Assembly: GCF_044324875.1 (NCBI RefSeq)
Contig: NZ_CP172185.1
Direction: 5' to 3' (one strand)
Source of the DNA: Escherichia coli
GTDB taxonomy: Bacteria; Pseudomonadota; Gammaproteobacteria; Enterobacterales; Enterobacteriaceae
Length of the DNA stretch: 64,000 nt
Below, in pieces: positions 5,695-56,766 of this stretch (position 1 is the stretch's first letter; every line of letters starts with the position of its first letter). The position numbers and the translations under genes are program-made. The notes beneath the pieces were generated by a model. That model was not told the DNA's origin. It was given only the letters and a program-made list of their open reading frames with translations, and made no database searches.

Positions 5695-6063
<369 letters not shown>

Positions 6064-6627: not shown

Positions 6628-7043
6628 TAGCTTTGCTCCTGGATGTTTGCCAGAGAAAATCTCTGGAACTCACTTCACTCCTCCAAACGGAGAGAGCGTC
6701 TTAATTACGGTGAGCAGAAACAAGCCAGAATATAAAAGAATAATCTTAGCGTTCTGTCACCGTCTACGCAGGGGATTAAGTTTCTTGCGAAACTCCTGCG
6801 GTCTTCGACGGAGGCCTGGATAGGCCAGGCTCCAACGAACAAATCTTTTCTATCCGTCGCTATTCAGCTTGTGGTGGCGTTGGTTGGCTTCCTTCGTTCG
6901 CACCAGTCACATAGTTAGCTATGCTCCTGGCGACTCACTCAGTTGCCGCCTTGCCACAACCCGAATATCTCGGACATACGTCTGCATTAAGCATTATACG
7001 TGGGGGTAAGATTGTAGACAAAATCACCGCCCACGTAAAGGCA
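6628..7043 (-). promoter_or_regulatory. rplJ leader region (long 5' UTR carrying the L10 promoter and L10(L12)4 autoregulatory site)
   Basis: About 416-nt non-coding gap between rplA stop and rplJ start, as in the E. coli rplKAJL-rpoBC cluster; exact sites not mapped by eye. Confidence 0.5.
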
Positions 7044-9498: not shown

Positions 9499-10719
<1,221 letters not shown>

Positions 10720-20095: not shown

Positions 20096-20953
20096 TCAGT
20101 CTAAAACTGCCAGTTTTTCGAGCGTTTCGAAGCCGTAACGCTGTAAAACGGGCAATAATTGTTCAGCTTCTGGCGTCATTGCCATACAAAAGGCAATATT
20201 CGCATCGGCAGATTTTGCATCCGGGGCTTCATGCTCTAGCAACCAGGCCGTTCGGCGAGCAATCGCTGCGCCAGAATCCACCAGCCGGGTTCCCTCTGGC
20301 AGCACCTGTAACAGTTCTTCTTGTAGTAGAGGGAAATGGGTACACCCCAGTACAACGGTATCTGGCGGCTCTTTCATTCTTAACCACGGACGCAAGATAC
20401 GTTTTAGCGCATCCAGAGAAACATCTTCGCCATGCAGCTTCGCTTCAGCCAACTCAACCATCTCTGCCGAGCCCAGCATTTCTATCTGGCATTCATTAGC
20501 GAATCGCGCGATCAGCTCATGAGTATAAGAACGTTTAACTGTTCCGCGGGTTGCCAGTAATCCAACAATGCCATTTGCCGTCAGACGTGCAGCAGGTTTA
20601 ATCGCCGGCACGACACCAACAACCGGGAAGTCGAACTTTTCGCGTAATGCAGGAAGTGAAACGGTACTGGCGGTGTTGCAAGCGACCACCGCCAGCGCAA
20701 GGGGATAACGTTCTTGCACCGCGGTGACAATTGCCACCACTCGCTCAACAATAAACGCTTCGCTTTTTTCGCCATACGGGAAAGCGACGTTATCGAAAGC
20801 ATAAATGTAATGGAGATCCGGTAAGAGATGCCGGATCTCGTCATAGACCGACAACCCACCGACGCCGGAGTCAAACACCAGCACGGTGGGACGTGGTTCA
20901 GAAGGTGTAGCTGCCAGACAAGGTGTATTCCCGTCCTGCAGTTTGGTAGCCAT
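20096..20953 (-). CDS. murI: Glutamate racemase
   Basis: ORF 20096..20965 contains [65 protein letters not shown]...; start placed at MATKLQ (285 codons); overlaps the btuB 3' end as in E. coli. Confidence 0.93.
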
Positions 20954-22746
20954 AGACTGTCTCATAATCTTTGTCGAACAGGTTGGCTATTTTACCACGA
21001 ACTGTCAGATGAGAGGTGACCGGATACGCAACCGCAAGATCCCACAAGCTCACACCGCCCATTTTAACGGTTTGATAAGGATAAGATGAGTAATCCTTAT
21101 CATAGCGAGTGCCTAAATACTGATAAGTAATACCCCAGTCGAAGTCATACAATTGCCAGTCGAGCTGGTATTTCACCTGCTGTTTAGCACGGCGTAACAA
21201 CGGCACGTCGGTAATCGCATTACGCGCATCGACATAATCATAACTCACAGTATGCGTCAGTGGTCCGGTATCAAAATTGGCGGTCGCCTCGACGCCCTTA
21301 ATCCGCGCTTTCCCTTCGTTGTAATATTTCAGGGTGTGATCATCATAATCGATCAAATCACTGACATCGTTACGATATCCGGAAATACGCCAGTTCACCC
21401 CAGCGGTTAAGCCTTCAAACGCGCCTTCCCACTGTTTGCTTTTCTCAGGATTCAGATTCGGATTTCCGTAGAAACCATACAGTTGCCCAAGATTAGGTGC
21501 CTTGTACGACGTGCCATAAGAAGCGATAAAACGATAGCCTTCGATGAATTCCCAACCGGCACTCGTTTGCCAGGTTCCATGACGACCAAACTGTGAGTTA
21601 TCGTCGCTGCGGGCTGCGCCTTCAAACGTAAAATCGCCGACTTGTTGCAGCCCAGTCAGATATGATGCCGGTATTACGTTGATCATATCCATCCTTAACA
21701 TAAGCTGTGCCCGGTGCCGTGCTCTGCTTCTGCCAGTCAACGCCCGCACCAATATTACCGTGGCCAACGGTAACGTTATTTGCCCACTGGACGGTGTACT
21801 GCTTCATCTCATCCAGCGTCGCCGACGAATCATAACGACCATAATGGGGATCGTAGTTGTAATCTTTGCTATGGCTATAGCTGGTAATGAGTTGTGATTT
21901 AATCATTTCGCCGTTATAGCGCAGCCCGGCGTCCCAACTTTGGCTATAGAGTTTACGGGTATCGAGCAACGGTGAGCCGGGAGAATAATACGCGTCATAA
22001 TTGGTAAGGTTATCATAGCCATAGCCGCGCACAAAGCCGCTCCAGGCATCAGTAAAGTTATGCTCCAGCGCGCCATAAAGCGTTTTACTTAAAAAACCAT
22101 CGTTATCTGTCTGCGCTTGCGTTCCGGTATTACCATAGGCAACAACATCATAACCATGAGTATGGGCATAATCGCCCAACAGCGTTACCCGTGTCTTATC
22201 CCCCAGTTGTTGCTGCGTGGAGACATCATAGTTCTGATAACTATTGCTTCCCCACCCTGCTGAAATTTCCGTTCCGGGTTCATCGCGCGTCGTGATGATA
22301 TTCACCACCCCACCTATCGCATCGGAACCATAAACGGCGGAGCGCGGCCCACGGATATATTCAACACGCTGGACAAGCGCAATAGGGAACTGGCTAAGGT
22401 CGGCAGAACCACTCACCCCTGCCAGATTCAGGCGTACGCCATCAATTAACACCAACACATGACTGGCATTTGTACCGCGAATAAAAATAGATGAGAGCTG
22501 ACCTGAACCGCCGTTTTGGGTGATATCGACGCCCGGAAGACGGCGCAGCACATCATTGACCGAGGTCGACTGCCAGCGGTCGATATCCTGACGCGTCACA
22601 ACGGTGGTTGGTGCAAGCACAGTGCTGCGCGGCTGTTCAAAACGGTTAGCAGTAACAACGAGAGTATCCGGGCTGGTATCCTGTGCCCAAGCGGAAAAGG
22701 CTGTGACGGAAAACGCCGTCAGCAGCGAAGCTTTTTTAATCATTGT
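20898..22746 (-). pseudogene. btuB: TonB-dependent vitamin B12 / colicin E / phage BF23 outer-membrane receptor, interrupted by a +1 frameshift
   Basis: Two overlapping ORFs in different frames: 21622..22788 gives [37 protein letters not shown]...[10 protein letters not shown] then out-of-frame residues and a stop; 20898..21767 gives ...[24 protein letters not shown]...GSYTF. Span 20898..22746 is 1849 nt = 614 codons + stop + 1 extra nt. Confidence 0.85.
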
Positions 22747-22789
22747 AAAGCATCCACAATAGAAGAAGGATGCCGCAGGTTTCATCAAT

Positions 22790-23020
22790 ATTACGCGATG
22801 ATGAGAACCAGATGCGACGTTAGCCGGCAGGTCTTCGGGCTTGGAGGGGTATCTAAGATACTAAGAGATGATGACTTCCCACCGGATGGCAGTGTCCGCA
22901 TAACGCAATCATCGCACCTTTCCTTACCGCTGCGCGTCAGCTCCAGATTCGCACTGGATTCCCTATTAACTCACAGGACCGGCAAGTGGATGCTACAGGT
23001 TGTAACAAGTTACTGTCCAG
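22790..23020 (-). promoter_or_regulatory. btuB 5' leader: adenosylcobalamin (B12) riboswitch
   Basis: Reverse strand contains GCCGGTCCTGTGAGTTAATAGGGAATCCAGTGCGAATCTGGAGCTGACGCGCAGCGGTAAGGAAAGGTGCGATGATTGCGTTATGCGGACACTGCCATCCGGTGGGAAGTCATCATCTC..., the btuB leader. Confidence 0.85.
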
Positions 23021-26993: not shown

Positions 26994-27893
26994 CACTTTA
27001 TCGAAATGGCCATCCATTCTTGCGCGGATGGCCTCTGCCAGCTGCTCATAGCGGCTGCGCAGCGGTGAGCCAGGACGATAAACCAGGCCAATAGTGCGGC
27101 GAGGTTCCGGCTTAATACACGGCAAATAAACAACCCCATCGCGTTTGCGCTCCGGCGGCACAGCCAGTGCAGGCAGTAAAGTGATCCCGCTACCTGCCGC
27201 CACCATGTTGCGCAGCGTCTCCAGGCTGGTCGCGCGGAAGTGTGTATCTTCATCCGCCCCGGCTTCAAAGCAGAAACCCATTGCCTGATCGCGCAAACAG
27301 TGACCGTCTTCCAGCATCAGCAGTTTTTCCCCTGCCAGATCGGCCATCGGTACGCATTCGCGGTTCGCCCACGGGTGATCTTCATAGATAGCCAGCAACA
27401 TTGGCTCATCAAACAACGGCACTTCAATGAATGCTTCGCTCTCTTTCACCAGCGCGAGGATCACGCAATCGAGCTTGCCGCTGTCCAGTTGCGCCAGTAA
27501 CTGGTGGGTCTGTGCTTCATGCAGATACATTTCCAGCTTTGGAAAGGTCTGGTGCAGCATCGGGATAATATGCGGTAGCAGGTACGGTCCAACCGTGGGA
27601 ATCAAACCAATATGCAGCGGTCCGGACATCGTCTCGCCCTGCTGGCTTGCCATCTCTTTAAGGACTTTCACCTCACGCAGCACGGTACGCGCCTGATCCA
27701 CCAGCAGCATTCCCGCCTGGGTGAACAACACTTTACGGCTGGTCCGCTCCAGCAACATCACGCCCAACTCATCTTCCAGCTTACGAATTTGCCCGCTAAG
27801 CGTCGGCTGGCTAACGTGGCAGGAATCTGCCGCACGCCGAAAATGGCGGTGTTCGGCCAATGCCACCAGGTACTCAAGATCACGAATATTCAT
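26976..27893 (-). CDS. oxyR: LysR-family hydrogen peroxide-inducible regulator
   Basis: ORF 26976..27938 contains [67 protein letters not shown]...; start placed at MNIRDLEY (305 codons). Confidence 0.95.
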
Positions 27894-32687: not shown

Positions 32688-32730
32688 AAAAGCAAATCAG
32701 GCTGATGACAAAGCCATGCAAGCGCACGGA

Positions 32731-32778
32731 CAGTCCCCTCGCCCCTTCGGGGAGAGGGTTAGGGTGAGGGGAAAACCG
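32731..32778. repeat. GC-rich intergenic repeat unit (boxC-like family)
   Basis: CAGTCCCCTCGCCCCTTCGGGGAGAGGGTTAGGGTGAGGGGAAAACCG downstream of argE; same motif family recurs at 48275..48384. Confidence 0.6.
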
Positions 32779-33098
32779 TGCCCATACTGACCCGTAAGCG
32801 AGTTTGTCAGCAATCTCAAATGATGCCCAAATGGTAACTACAACTCATAACTCTTTGGTGTTACTTGAGGCGATTTTTTAACATTTCCATAAGTTACGCT
32901 TATTTAAAGCGTCGTGAATTTAATGGCGTAAATTCCTGCTATTTATTCGTTTGCTGAAGCGATTTCGCAGCATTTGACGTCACCGCTTTTACGTGGCTTT
33001 ATAAAAGACGACGAAAAGCAAAGCCCGAGCATATTCGCGCCAATGCGACGTGAAGGATACAGGGCTATCAAACGATAAGATGGGGTGTCTGGGGTAAT

Positions 33099-35932: not shown

Positions 35933-37666
35933 ATGCATTCCACAGAAGTCCAGGCTAAACCTCTTTTTAGCTGGAAAGCCCTGGGTTGGGCACTGCTCTA
36001 CTTTTGGTTTTTCTCTACTCTGCTACAGGCCATTATTTACATCAGTGGTTATAGTGGCACTAATGGCATTCGCGACTCGCTGTTATTCAGTTCGCTGTGG
36101 TTGATCCCGGTATTCCTCTTTCCGAAGCGGATTAAAATTATTGCCGCAGTAATCGGCGTGGTGCTATGGGCGGCCTCTCTGGCGGCGCTGTGCTACTACG
36201 TCATCTACGGTCAGGAGTTCTCGCAGAGCGTTCTGTTTGTGATGTTTGAAACCAACACCAACGAAGCCAGCGAGTATTTAAGCCAGTATTTCAGCCTGAA
36301 AATTGTGCTTATCGCGCTGGCCTATACGGCGGTGGCAGTTCTGCTGTGGACACGCCTGCGCCCGGTCTATATTCCAAAGCCGTGGCGTTATGTTGTCTCT
36401 TTTGCCCTGCTTTATGGCTTGATTCTGCATCCGATCGCCATGAATACGTTTATCAAGAACAAGCCGTTTGAGAAAACGTTGGATAACCTGGCATCGCGTA
36501 TGGAGCCTGCCGCACCGTGGCAATTCCTGACCGGCTATTATCAGTATCGTCAGCAACTAAACTCGCTAACAAAGCTACTGAATGAAAATAATGCCTTGCC
36601 GCCGCTGGCTAATTTCAAAGATGAATCGGGTAACGAACCGCGCACCTTAGTGCTGGTAATTGGCGAATCGACCCAGCGTGGACGCATGAGTCTGTACGGT
36701 TATCCGCGTGAAACCACGCCGGAGCTGGATGCACTGCATAAAACCGATCCGAATCTGACCGTGTTTAATAACGTGGTGACGTCTCGTCCGTACACCATTG
36801 AAATCCTGCAACAGGCGCTGACCTTTGCCAATGAAAAGAACCCGGACCTGTACCTGACACAGCCGTCGCTGATGAACATGATGAAACAGGCGGGTTATAA
36901 AACCTTCTGGATCACCAACCAGCAGACGATGACCGCCCGCAATACCATGCTGACGGTATTTTCGCGCCAGACCGACAAGCAGTACTACATGAACCAGCAA
37001 CGTACGCAGAGTGCGCGTGAATACGACACCAACGTGCTGAAGCCGTTCCAGGAAGTGCTGAATGACCCTGCGCCGAAGAAACTGATCATCGTTCATCTGC
37101 TGGGTACGCATATCAAATACAAATACCGCTACCCGGAAAATCAGGGCAAGTTTGATGGCAATACCGATCATGTTCCGCCGGGATTAAACGCGGAAGAGCT
37201 GGAGTCATATAACGATTATGACAACGCTAACCTGTATAACGATCATGTGGTTGCCAGCCTGATTAAAGACTTTAAAGCAGCAGACCCGAACGGTTTCCTG
37301 GTTTACTTCTCTGACCACGGTGAAGAGGTTTACGACACGCCGCCGCACAAAACTCAGGGGCGTAACGAAGACAACCCGACGCGTCATATGTACACCATTC
37401 CGTTCCTGCTGTGGACGTCGGAAAAATGGCAAGCGGCTCATCCGCGTGATTTCTCACAGGATGTTGATCGTAAATACAGCCTTGCGGAACTGATCCACAC
37501 CTGGTCAGATTTGGCGGGCTTATCTTACGACGGTTACGATCCAACCCGTTCAGTGGTGAATCCGCAGTTCAAAGAAACTACCCGCTGGATTGGTAACCCG
37601 TACAAGAAAAACGCGCTGATCGATTACGACACGCTGCCATATGGCGACCAGGTAGGTAATCAGTAA
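35933..37666 (+). CDS. eptC: Phosphoethanolamine transferase (LPS core modification), sulfatase-family inner-membrane enzyme
   Basis: ORF 35888..37666 contains MHSTEVQAKPLFSWKALGWALLYFWFFSTLLQAIIYISGYSGTNGIRDSLLFSSLWLIPVFLFP...; start placed at MHSTEV (577 codons). Confidence 0.93.
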   Translation: MHSTEVQAKPLFSWKALGWALLYFWFFSTLLQAIIYISGYSGTNGIRDSLLFSSLWLIPVFLFPKRIKIIAAVIGVVLWAASLAALCYYVIYGQEFSQSVLFVMFETNTNEASEYLSQYFSLKIVLIALAYTAVAVLLWTRLRPVYIPKPWRYVVSFALLYGLILHPIAMNTFIKNKPFEKTLDNLASRMEPAAPWQFLTGYYQYRQQLNSLTKLLNENNALPPLANFKDESGNEPRTLVLVIGESTQRGRMSLYGYPRETTPELDALHKTDPNLTVFNNVVTSRPYTIEILQQALTFANEKNPDLYLTQPSLMNMMKQAGYKTFWITNQQTMTARNTMLTVFSRQTDKQYYMNQQRTQSAREYDTNVLKPFQEVLNDPAPKKLIIVHLLGTHIKYKYRYPENQGKFDGNTDHVPPGLNAEELESYNDYDNANLYNDHVVASLIKDFKAADPNGFLVYFSDHGEEVYDTPPHKTQGRNEDNPTRHMYTIPFLLWTSEKWQAAHPRDFSQDVDRKYSLAELIHTWSDLAGLSYDGYDPTRSVVNPQFKETTRWIGNPYKKNALIDYDTLPYGDQVGNQ

Positions 37667-37740
37667 ATGACCTTTGTATCGCGTCTGGCGCTATTTGCCG
37701 GATGCGATACTGCCGCAATGTTTACATCGAACTCCCCTCA

Positions 37741-53949: not shown

Positions 53950-55503
53950 TTACTTGATATCTTTCACGCGCATACCGTTGATCTGTTCATCCGTGATGGT
54001 GTTACCCGCTTTGAAGTAATCAACCACGGCGTGATAAACGTAATAACCGCCCGTTGTGTTACGCGCTTTCCCTTCGGTAAAGGCGGTAAAACCATCTCCA
54101 CCATCAGCAAGGAAACTCTGAGTAGCAATGTGGTAAATCGTCGCATCTTCAATGGGTTTGCCATTCAGAGTCAGTGTGATTACCCGCTGACCAACCGGTT
54201 TGCTGCTGTCGTACTTCATTTCCAGGCCTTTCGATACCTGTAAAACGCCATTACTTAAACTTGCGCCGTGTTCCATCAAACTGCGTAATTGTTTACCTGT
54301 GAGATCCATCGTCACCAGTTCATTGGGGAACGGGAAGGTACTGATGACGCCGCCCATCGTAATCGCCCCTGCGGGGATCTCATTGCGAATGCCGCCAGAG
54401 TTGGTTAACGCCAATTGGGTGTTTTTACCCGCCGCTACCAGTAAAGCATCAGCCGCCAGGTTCCCGAGGGAAGCCGATTCACCATAGGCACGTTTTAATT
54501 CAACCGGCGATTTCGCGACCGTTTGTTGCACCACTTCATCAAGCTTTTTATTCCAGCCGTCGATCACCTGTTTCGTTTGCGGATCGGGCTTCCACTCATC
54601 GGCGTAAATGGTTTTAAGCTCGAAGTTTTTCACCGTAAAATCATGCGGCTTCTCTTTGTAGTCGAGGACCAGTTTGCCCACATCAATCCCGCCGCTGTCA
54701 GTGGAGAGGATGAGCGTATTGCCGACTTTAATCGGTTCCGGCGTACCCACATGTGCATGTCCGGTGATCAAAATATCCAGCCCTTTCACCTGACTTGCCG
54801 TCTGAATATCTTTATCCAACGCGCGACGCACATCGGTCCCTCCCATACTGGACTGGCGGGCCGGAACACCTTCGTGGATCAGGGCGACGGTCAAATCAAC
54901 CTTGCCTTTGAGTTCATCGATATAACGTTGTAGCCATTTAATTTCATCACGCGCCTCAATACCCACTCGCGTTGCCGCAGATACCGTGTCATTAAAGGCA
55001 AATACACCGTGCAAACCTATAACGCCTATTTTCACACCGTCTTTTTCGATGATGGTATAGGGCTTATCCCAGAATGATTTACTGCTGTTCTGATAAAAAA
55101 CATTGCCCTGCACAATCGGGAATTTTGCCTGACTCAACTGTAATAATGTGTTGTCCCAGCCGTGGTCAAATTCATGGTTGCCTATCGTGACGGCATCAAA
55201 CGGCATAGTATTCATAATATCGATAATAGCCTTACCTTTGGTCAGGCTGCTGATATAGGGCCAGGTAAAATAGTCGCCCGCATCAAAAAACCATGTCGCT
55301 TTATTTTTTGCTTTTTCTTGCTTAACCAGCGTAGTGATATTTGCCCAGCCGCCAATATCCCGTTTACCGTCAGCGATCCACGGCACTTTATAAGGCTCGA
55401 CATGTGCATGGAGGTCGTTGGTATAAATGATGGTGACATCTTTAGCGCAAGCCCAGAATGGCAGTGTTAATGCGATACCCGCAGCAAGTATTTTAATTTT
55501 CAT
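53950..55503 (-). CDS. Secreted bifunctional metallophosphatase / 5'-nucleotidase (UshA/CpdB family); not present at this locus in K-12
   Basis: 517-aa ORF: N-terminal signal peptide [20 protein letters not shown]; metallophosphoesterase motifs DLHAH, GDYF, GNHEFD, GHAHV; C-terminal 5'-nucleotidase motifs [20 protein letters not shown]; good SD (AAAGGGA) upstream. Confidence 0.85.
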
Positions 55504-55559
55504 AAACAGTCCCTTTCAGTGAGATAAAGGATTGCTACATTACGTTCTGAAAGAGTTAT

Positions 55560-55581
55560 TTATGTGAGAGTAATCACATCC
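55560..55581. promoter_or_regulatory. Candidate cAMP-CRP binding site in the divergent promoter region of the two accessory genes
   Basis: TTATGTGAGAGTAATCACATCC: TGTGA-N6-TCACA half-sites at 55563..55578, about 65 bp from each start codon. Confidence 0.5.
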
Positions 55582-55635
55582 ACAGGGGAGCGTTGCCGGA
55601 CAAAATCAACGACCATGTGAAATCGTTGGTGATAT

Positions 55636-56766
55636 ATGTCGACTCTGTTTACGATTAATGCCTGCAAGTCGTTTGGTTGCCGTAATTTAGGGCAGCCAAC
55701 ATCGACAGATTATAGCTGGCCCGACTATCGACTGGGTTATCCGGCATTGCACTGTCGGGCATGTGGCAGTTACCCGCCGTTGTTTGACGAGCAACAATTT
55801 CGTGACTGGTTGACAGTTCACTTATCTACTTTTGCAACAGAGAAAGGCCATTTTTGCCCGGTATGTTATGGCACAGAGACGATTTGTTATGGTCACAATC
55901 CACAGGGTTCGCAACGCATTCAATGCCGTAACTGCAAAAAAGTATGGACACCCAAACAATATCAGAAAGAAATAACGCCTCCCGAAATAATCGAAACGGT
56001 TGCTTTTCTCGTGCCATTTCAGGGAGTCAGCAGCGGGCAGAAACTGTATGTTTTAATCAGTTTTGATGCTCTTCGCGGTAATATTCTTCATCTTTCTACT
56101 AATTACACGCAGCATCAGGCTGGAGAAAGTCTGCATTATCGATACAGAGGAAATGCAGAACCAGAGTTACACGACAATAATATTGTACAACGCGTTGATA
56201 TGCGCGAAGCACAATTTCTACGCCGCAGTCAGTTTGATGAAATTCAGTATGGCAGCGCAGCGCTCAAGCGCAATGCCAAAGGCATTATTCTGCGTCCGGT
56301 TATCACAGCGCACGGGCATTTTAGAGTACTGAATATTTTATTCCCTACAGTAAAAACACATGTAATTTCACACGAGTGTTTTTTAAGAGGTGCGATTATT
56401 ACGGCCTGGGCAGAACTGTTTCGCCAACAGCAAGGTGAGATTTGGTTTATTGAAGAGGAAATAGCTGACTATACCGATAATACGCCCTGGCGTTTTCAGG
56501 GAACAACTTATCACGGCTGGTGGAAAAATCAGTGGCAACTTTGGGGTCAGGGCAAAAATCGTAAAATGGTATGTGCATTAACAGGCGGAAATAACAGCAA
56601 AGCTGAAATGCTCTCTTTCGCAACCAGCAGACATTTTATCGACTGGCTACATAAACAAGCAGTATTTACTCACAGCACCCCGCTTTCCGCAGGGCGCGTT
56701 ACGCAAATACTGCTTTCTCTGGCTCAGGATTACAACAACTGCGCCAGCCGGTTGATATCCGACTGA
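55636..56766 (+). CDS. Cys-rich hypothetical protein with two N-terminal zinc-ribbon motifs (second resembles transposase-type IS1 InsA / IS1595 ribbon) and an unrecognised C-terminal domain; not present in K-12
   Basis: 376-aa ORF in AT-richer DNA; CKSFGC...HCRAC and CPVCYGTETICYGHNPQGSQRIQCRNCKKVW (compare IS1 InsA CPSC...GHQRYLCSHCRKTW); last ~12 codons overlap the metL 3' end on the opposite strand. Confidence 0.7.
   Translation: MSTLFTINACKSFGCRNLGQPTSTDYSWPDYRLGYPALHCRACGSYPPLFDEQQFRDWLTVHLSTFATEKGHFCPVCYGTETICYGHNPQGSQRIQCRNCKKVWTPKQYQKEITPPEIIETVAFLVPFQGVSSGQKLYVLISFDALRGNILHLSTNYTQHQAGESLHYRYRGNAEPELHDNNIVQRVDMREAQFLRRSQFDEIQYGSAALKRNAKGIILRPVITAHGHFRVLNILFPTVKTHVISHECFLRGAIITAWAELFRQQQGEIWFIEEEIADYTDNTPWRFQGTTYHGWWKNQWQLWGQGKNRKMVCALTGGNNSKAEMLSFATSRHFIDWLHKQAVFTHSTPLSAGRVTQILLSLAQDYNNCASRLISD

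Follow-up and report, generated by a model that had tools for sequence, protein, structure and literature searches.

A single-base insertion in btuB of Escherichia coli as a probable recent, lineage-restricted loss-of-function allele

The window analysed here (the whole stretch of Escherichia coli DNA, 64 kb long) carries btuB between trmA and murI, with an rRNA operon after murI, which is the gene order of annotated E. coli genomes. The initial annotation had assigned the interrupted gene to btuB, and the data agree with this assignment. When the extra base is removed, the encoded protein aligns end to end with PDB 1NQE (precursor residues 21–614 corresponding to mature residues 1–594, 1343 bits, about 11 differing positions), that is, with near-identity to the characterised E. 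coli BtuB; a plug is followed by a TonB-dependent receptor barrel, and the gene is accompanied by a cobalamin riboswitch and by the expected neighbours. Precomputed Pfam assignments place Plug and TonB_dep_Rec_b-barrel together on the intact protein of the sister genome, only Plug on the 373-residue product of the window, and TonB_dep_Rec_b-barrel on a 166-aa fragment called from the distal ORF.

The btuB leader is 240 nt long (PMC11162775), and counting this length back from the ATG, we infer the transcription start to lie at 22983. Upstream of the riboswitch, the consensus scan detected TAGCAT as the only −10-like hexamer. At the opposite end of the gene, the start of murI overlaps the 3′ end of btuB by 56 nt. 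The coordinates of these features are collected in Table 1.

Table 1. Features of the btuB region (window coordinates) and the evidence on which each is placed.
Feature	Position	Strand	Details
btuB locus, very probably now a pseudogene	20898..22743	-	1846 nt, ATG to native TGA; single indel relative to intact 1845-nt alleles
Inserted A	21663	-	Gene position 1081, directly following codon 360; sole gap relative to ETEC1738, 7/2, A10 and the sister L021
Premature TGA stop	21622..21624	-	In the shifted frame, 13 codons past the insertion; ORF list and translation
Shortened btuB ORF	21622..22743	-	373 aa (360 native + 13 aberrant) and stop; signal peptide, plug and proximal part of the barrel
Out-of-frame remainder of the distal barrel (native codons 361–614)	20898..21662	-	Native-frame ORF; lacks a signal peptide
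Intact cobalamin riboswitch of the btuB leader	22809..22998	-	Full-length match to the model Rfam RF00174, 87.8 bits (gathering score 31.5)
btuB promoter-like site TGGACA, 18-nt spacer, TAGCAT	22990..23019	-	Consensus scan; the window has the ancestral sequence
murI (glutamate racemase), intact	20096..20953	-	Annotation of the orthologous loci; DNA identical to the intact sister

The interruption of btuB was located by aligning the locus, whose ATG is at 22743 and whose TGA ends at 20898, with three intact 1845-nt alleles from complete E. coli genomes. The alignment put one extra A inside the interval 21657–21669, where the initial annotation had expected it; the minus-strand reading quoted there, ...GAT CAA CGT AAT ACC GGC ATC ATA TCT GAC TGG..., is exactly that of the window, and the locus length of 614 codons, a stop and one nucleotide had also been given correctly. 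In the ORF list the gene appears as two overlapping minus-strand ORFs in different frames (21622–22788 and 20898–21767), the latter ending with the canonical BtuB C-terminus ...YTLSGSYTF. The consequences for the reading frame had been described correctly in kind, but their extent requires revision: the shift follows precursor codon 360 (mature residue 340 in the 1NQE numbering) rather than about codon 376, termination comes 13 rather than about 20 codons later, with the stop at codon 374, and the 373-aa product lacks 254 rather than roughly 240 native C-terminal residues of the barrel. A length difference which is not divisible by three (1846 versus 1845 nt), combined with a premature stop, is characteristic of a frameshift pseudogene. 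The context of the insertion, GGCATC[A]TATCTG, is neither a homopolymer, as had been noted before, nor a simple repeat. We also considered a phase-variable locus, which is not supported, since the insertion site has neither a homopolymer nor a short tandem repeat.

A hypervariable stretch (window 21665–21770, btuB codons 324–350) adjoins the frameshift upstream. The differences between alleles in this part are I324V, I325T, I326V, S330N, T341S, T343A, G347A and E350K, and the stretch probably corresponds to an extracellular loop. Across the complete genomes, btuB identity ranges from 99.5% down to less than 80%, with a divergent class of alleles of about 1839–1884 nt.

To see how widely the insertion occurs, a 111-nt query across it was compared with the complete RefSeq genomes of E. 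coli. The insertion was absent from all 4903 genomes that gave a match, none of which reached 100%, and the best 106 of these matches were 110/111 over a 110-nt span, the difference being the single gap. The exact 373-aa product was found on 8–9 other contigs. Its carriers include four Logan assemblies (SRR21141939, SRR21141407, SRR8502404 and SRR21142071) and the NCBI assembly GCA_958308375.1; their DNA aligns to the window without gaps and with 0–2 mismatches over 3.3–8.7 kb, and the extra A is present in all of them. Among these five assemblies, three or more submitters or run series are represented. Two of the carrier loci have private SNPs, at window positions 27086 (L004) and 24355 (L005), and therefore represent different isolates, not re-assemblies of one isolate. 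The 29-nt junction of the insertion was not found in JGI metagenome contigs.

Comparison with close relatives, which the initial annotation had proposed as a check, revealed the ancestral state of the gene. Relative to eight other alleles, the btuB of the window has two lineage-specific changes, R246L and L280M. We rejected the view that they represent drift following inactivation, because the intact allele P0031 has both. About 90 contigs of the same lineage (122 index blocks) lack the extra A and encode exactly the repaired 614-aa protein with these two substitutions, which is annotated as E. coli BtuB. Across 13,122 bp, only two positions separate the window from its closest intact relative, the sister locus L021 (GCA_040716805.1): 21663, with the extra A, and 22994, with a substitution. 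At the latter position, A is present in the window and 19 other loci, and C only in GCA_040716805.1. Since this C is private to the sister, the frameshift is the only derived change in the lineage of the window over 13 kb; for the same reason we rejected the difference at 22994 as a second lesion in the window, whose base is ancestral. Close relatives of the window, namely the sister locus and the lineage represented by these contigs, thus retain the intact ancestral allele. Within the lineage, the frameshift allele occurs on about 8–9 contigs versus about 90–120 intact ones. By these comparisons, the frameshift is evidently very recent and belongs to a minority sub-clade of a lineage which otherwise keeps btuB.

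None of the 5426 complete RefSeq genomes of E. coli is closer to the window than about 99.1–99.5% over 12–24 kb, yet the btuB allele is shared by over 100 draft assemblies or runs, so that the lineage, frequent among drafts, has no representative among the complete genomes. The distance to the complete genomes had raised the suspicion of a Shigella-like genome decay. It was rejected because the comparison with A10 revealed neither another frame-breaking indel nor an insertion of IS size, and the records name the protein as that of E. coli.

The substitution private to the sister deserves separate consideration. In GCA_040716805.1, the A-to-C change at 22994 converts the hexamer TAGCAT (22995–22990; positions 9749–9754 of L021) into TCGCAT, and the consensus scan no longer detects the promoter-like site. 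With the start at 22983, the changed base is A-11, and A-11 is the most conserved position of the −10 element. To judge from the sequence, this change should cripple the btuB promoter of the sister. Both differences between the window and the sister in 13.1 kb would therefore hit the expression of btuB, which is suggestive of a parallel silencing, the sister being represented by one contig, in two samples. A tentative idea, which we consider rather doubtful at present, is that this E. coli clone experiences active selection against the expression of BtuB. Should independent btuB-silencing changes turn up in further members of the clone, one would deal with a natural parallel loss of a receptor, presumably caused by a BtuB-dependent phage or colicin in the niche.

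Lesions of btuB are also found outside this lineage. The alignment revealed independent nonsense codons in unrelated E. coli at positions 384, 391, 392, 425 and 438, as well as an inserted T at gene position 1345 and two internal deletions. These lesions (L012–L018 and L020) resemble that of the window in leaving a plug-containing N-terminal fragment together with the same 166-aa C-terminal ORF, but they occur in different allele backgrounds (97.9–98.6% identical) and at other positions, and none of them has the inserted A. N-terminal fragments of many lengths accompany the 166-aa C-terminal fragment in unrelated assemblies and metagenomes. Two further loci (L011 and L019) were set aside as probable low-quality assemblies, because they show multiple indels and 1.6x coverage, with trmA in fragments. 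Of the complete genomes, 60 were sampled evenly along the ranking, and btuB had its intact length in every one of them; the loss of btuB is therefore not common.

Comparable null alleles have been described in the literature. A btuB nonsense mutation is present in E. coli BL21(DE3) (PMC6150544), and in Salmonella ST34, 13 independent pseudogenisations of btuB were interpreted as protection from colicins, mostly transient (PMC10547704). Like the allele of the window, these are sporadic, lineage-restricted point lesions which cut the barrel short, and the expected phenotype is similarly a reduced uptake of cobalamin with resistance to BtuB-dependent colicins and phages. The allele of the window differs from them in the lesion itself and in that it occurs in a natural E. 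coli sub-clade, the intact ancestor allele of which is still circulating. To our knowledge, the insertion of A after codon 360 of btuB has not been described before.

Since single-base indels are the commonest assembly error, and the insertion occurs in no complete RefSeq genome, one may suppose that the genome has an intact btuB and that the extra A is a base-calling or consensus artefact. This supposition conflicts with the gap-free presence of the same insertion in five other assemblies from differing runs and submitters, two of them genetically distinguishable, which provides independent support at the assembly level. A systematic error of the sequence context is opposed by the approximately 90 contigs of the same lineage, which were assembled without the extra A; moreover, the site is not a homopolymer, and the insertion is the only frame-breaking indel in the 64 kb of the window when compared with the complete genome A10 (L009). 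As far as can be judged from the assemblies, an error is a very unlikely source of the extra A, and the choice between a real mutation and an assembly error, which the initial annotation had left open, falls in favour of the former. Even less probable, in our opinion, is a recoding, in which full-length BtuB would be produced by +1 ribosomal frameshifting, for example in the stop context GUU UGA A. Such a shift, at whatever point from the insertion to the TGA (21624–21622), would re-enter the native frame at the cost of a substituted stretch of 13 residues, the A-site codon AUA after the insertion is rare, and very few BtuB molecules are enough for B12 nutrition, the needs for B12 being tiny. 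However, the extra base is absent from the immediate sister and from all 4903 matching complete genomes, and a site which is not conserved has evolved no recoding signal; the sequence has neither a Shine–Dalgarno-like stimulator nor a slippery context CUU UGA of the prfB kind, and the substituted stretch would fall in a barrel strand. The likeness to genes with a programmed +1 frameshift of the prfB type consists in the one-base offset between two coding halves, whereas in btuB this offset is not conserved in orthologues, has no stimulatory signal and is replaced by an uninterrupted frame in the sister. Traces of full-length BtuB could nevertheless arise from spontaneous +1 frameshifting at a very low level. 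In our view, the btuB of the window is, with high probability, a genuine, recent and lineage-restricted loss-of-function allele, generated by the insertion of A after codon 360.

The persistence of this loss-of-function allele may be explained in more than one way. The frameshift may be real and at the same time neutral or slightly deleterious, being a transient chance pseudogene of a small clone in which phages and colicins play no role. This is a distinct possibility, although somewhat less likely than not: the allele is both rare and young, E. coli possessing MetE needs no B12 under many conditions, and a typical E. coli genome harbours dozens of neutral pseudogenes, which makes drift or hitch-hiking possible. 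Against chance alone stand the repeated and independent hits which btuB has received in nature, and the fact that the sole other difference between the window and its sister in 13 kb is the −11 substitution that the latter has in its btuB promoter. In addition, the frameshift sub-clade turned up in several samplings and has gained other SNPs, so that it is not an immediate dead end. The recurrent independent lesions of btuB elsewhere are consistent with selection by phages or colicins, which the initial annotation had suggested as a possible cause, and we estimate the chances that such pressure stands behind the persistence of the frameshift itself as roughly even. In either case, the frameshift is an ordinary event of a well-understood kind, the inactivation of a phage and colicin receptor, which raises no new biological question and adds one more data point to the record of btuB as a gene repeatedly inactivated in natural enterobacteria.

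The probable consequences of the loss-of-function allele for the cell can be outlined as follows. The added A shifts the frame after codon 360, and translation halts 13 codons on. The resulting 373-residue product includes the signal peptide, the TonB box and plug, and, by our estimate, roughly the first nine of the 22 barrel strands. It is devoid of the remaining strands and of the C-terminal aromatic residue (the β-signal), so that neither closure of the barrel nor its insertion by BAM would occur, and degradation in the periplasm is to be expected; the distal fragment has no signal peptide. From what is generally known about β-barrel assembly, functional BtuB is presumably missing from the outer membrane. 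The absence of BtuB would in turn abolish the TonB-dependent high-affinity uptake of cobalamin, and the cell would rely on the B12-independent MetE, the B12-dependent pathways being lost unless B12 is abundant. For the same reason, the receptor for colicins E1–E9 and A, for BF23 and for other BtuB-dependent T5-like phages would be missing. Loss of B12 uptake combined with resistance to these colicins and phages is thus the most likely phenotype predicted from the sequence.

A polar effect on the essential murI gene is unlikely to matter. When AdoCbl is bound, Rho-dependent termination occurs at +81 to +210 of the btuB ORF (PMC11162775). As btuB transcripts are already terminated by Rho under these conditions, murI cannot depend solely on the btuB promoter and presumably has a promoter of its own. 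The consensus scan for an internal murI promoter gave one weak site at 21126–21099, the number of hits being no higher than in the shuffled sequence, so that this site carries no weight as evidence.

In practical terms, the annotation of this genome should list btuB as a pseudogene rather than as a sequencing error. In predictions for the strain, one should reckon with the lack of high-affinity B12 uptake and with resistance to the E-group colicins and BtuB-dependent T5-like phages, and the predicted resistance becomes relevant if the strain is a target of phage or colicin treatment.

Several observations concern other parts of the window. Single-base homopolymer differences from A10 are located in 23S and 16S rRNA (window 15761, 16403 and 19053). 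A10 probably contains assembly errors at these homopolymers, because the runs in the window have the canonical lengths of the K-12 rRNA sequences; caution is needed when A10 serves as a reference. A 4-nt insertion, GTTG, relative to A10 occurs at window 6879–6882, in the intergenic leader that separates rplA from rplJ. The intergenic segments 32689–32853 (argE–ppc) and 37666–37706 (eptC–yijO) are too divergent from A10 to be aligned by megablast. Between metF and metL (window 53950–56766), there are genes for a metallophosphatase/5′-nucleotidase-like protein of 517 aa and a hypothetical protein of 376 aa, which are also found in A10; neither is known from K-12 at that position. Finally, rplL (window 5695–6063, minus strand) encodes an L7/L12 protein of 122 aa with one extra alanine in the hinge, resulting from an in-frame addition of 3 nt near 5946. 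This variant is rare but real: it is matched at ≥99% by 19 of the 5420 complete E. coli genomes, five of which are listed at 100%.
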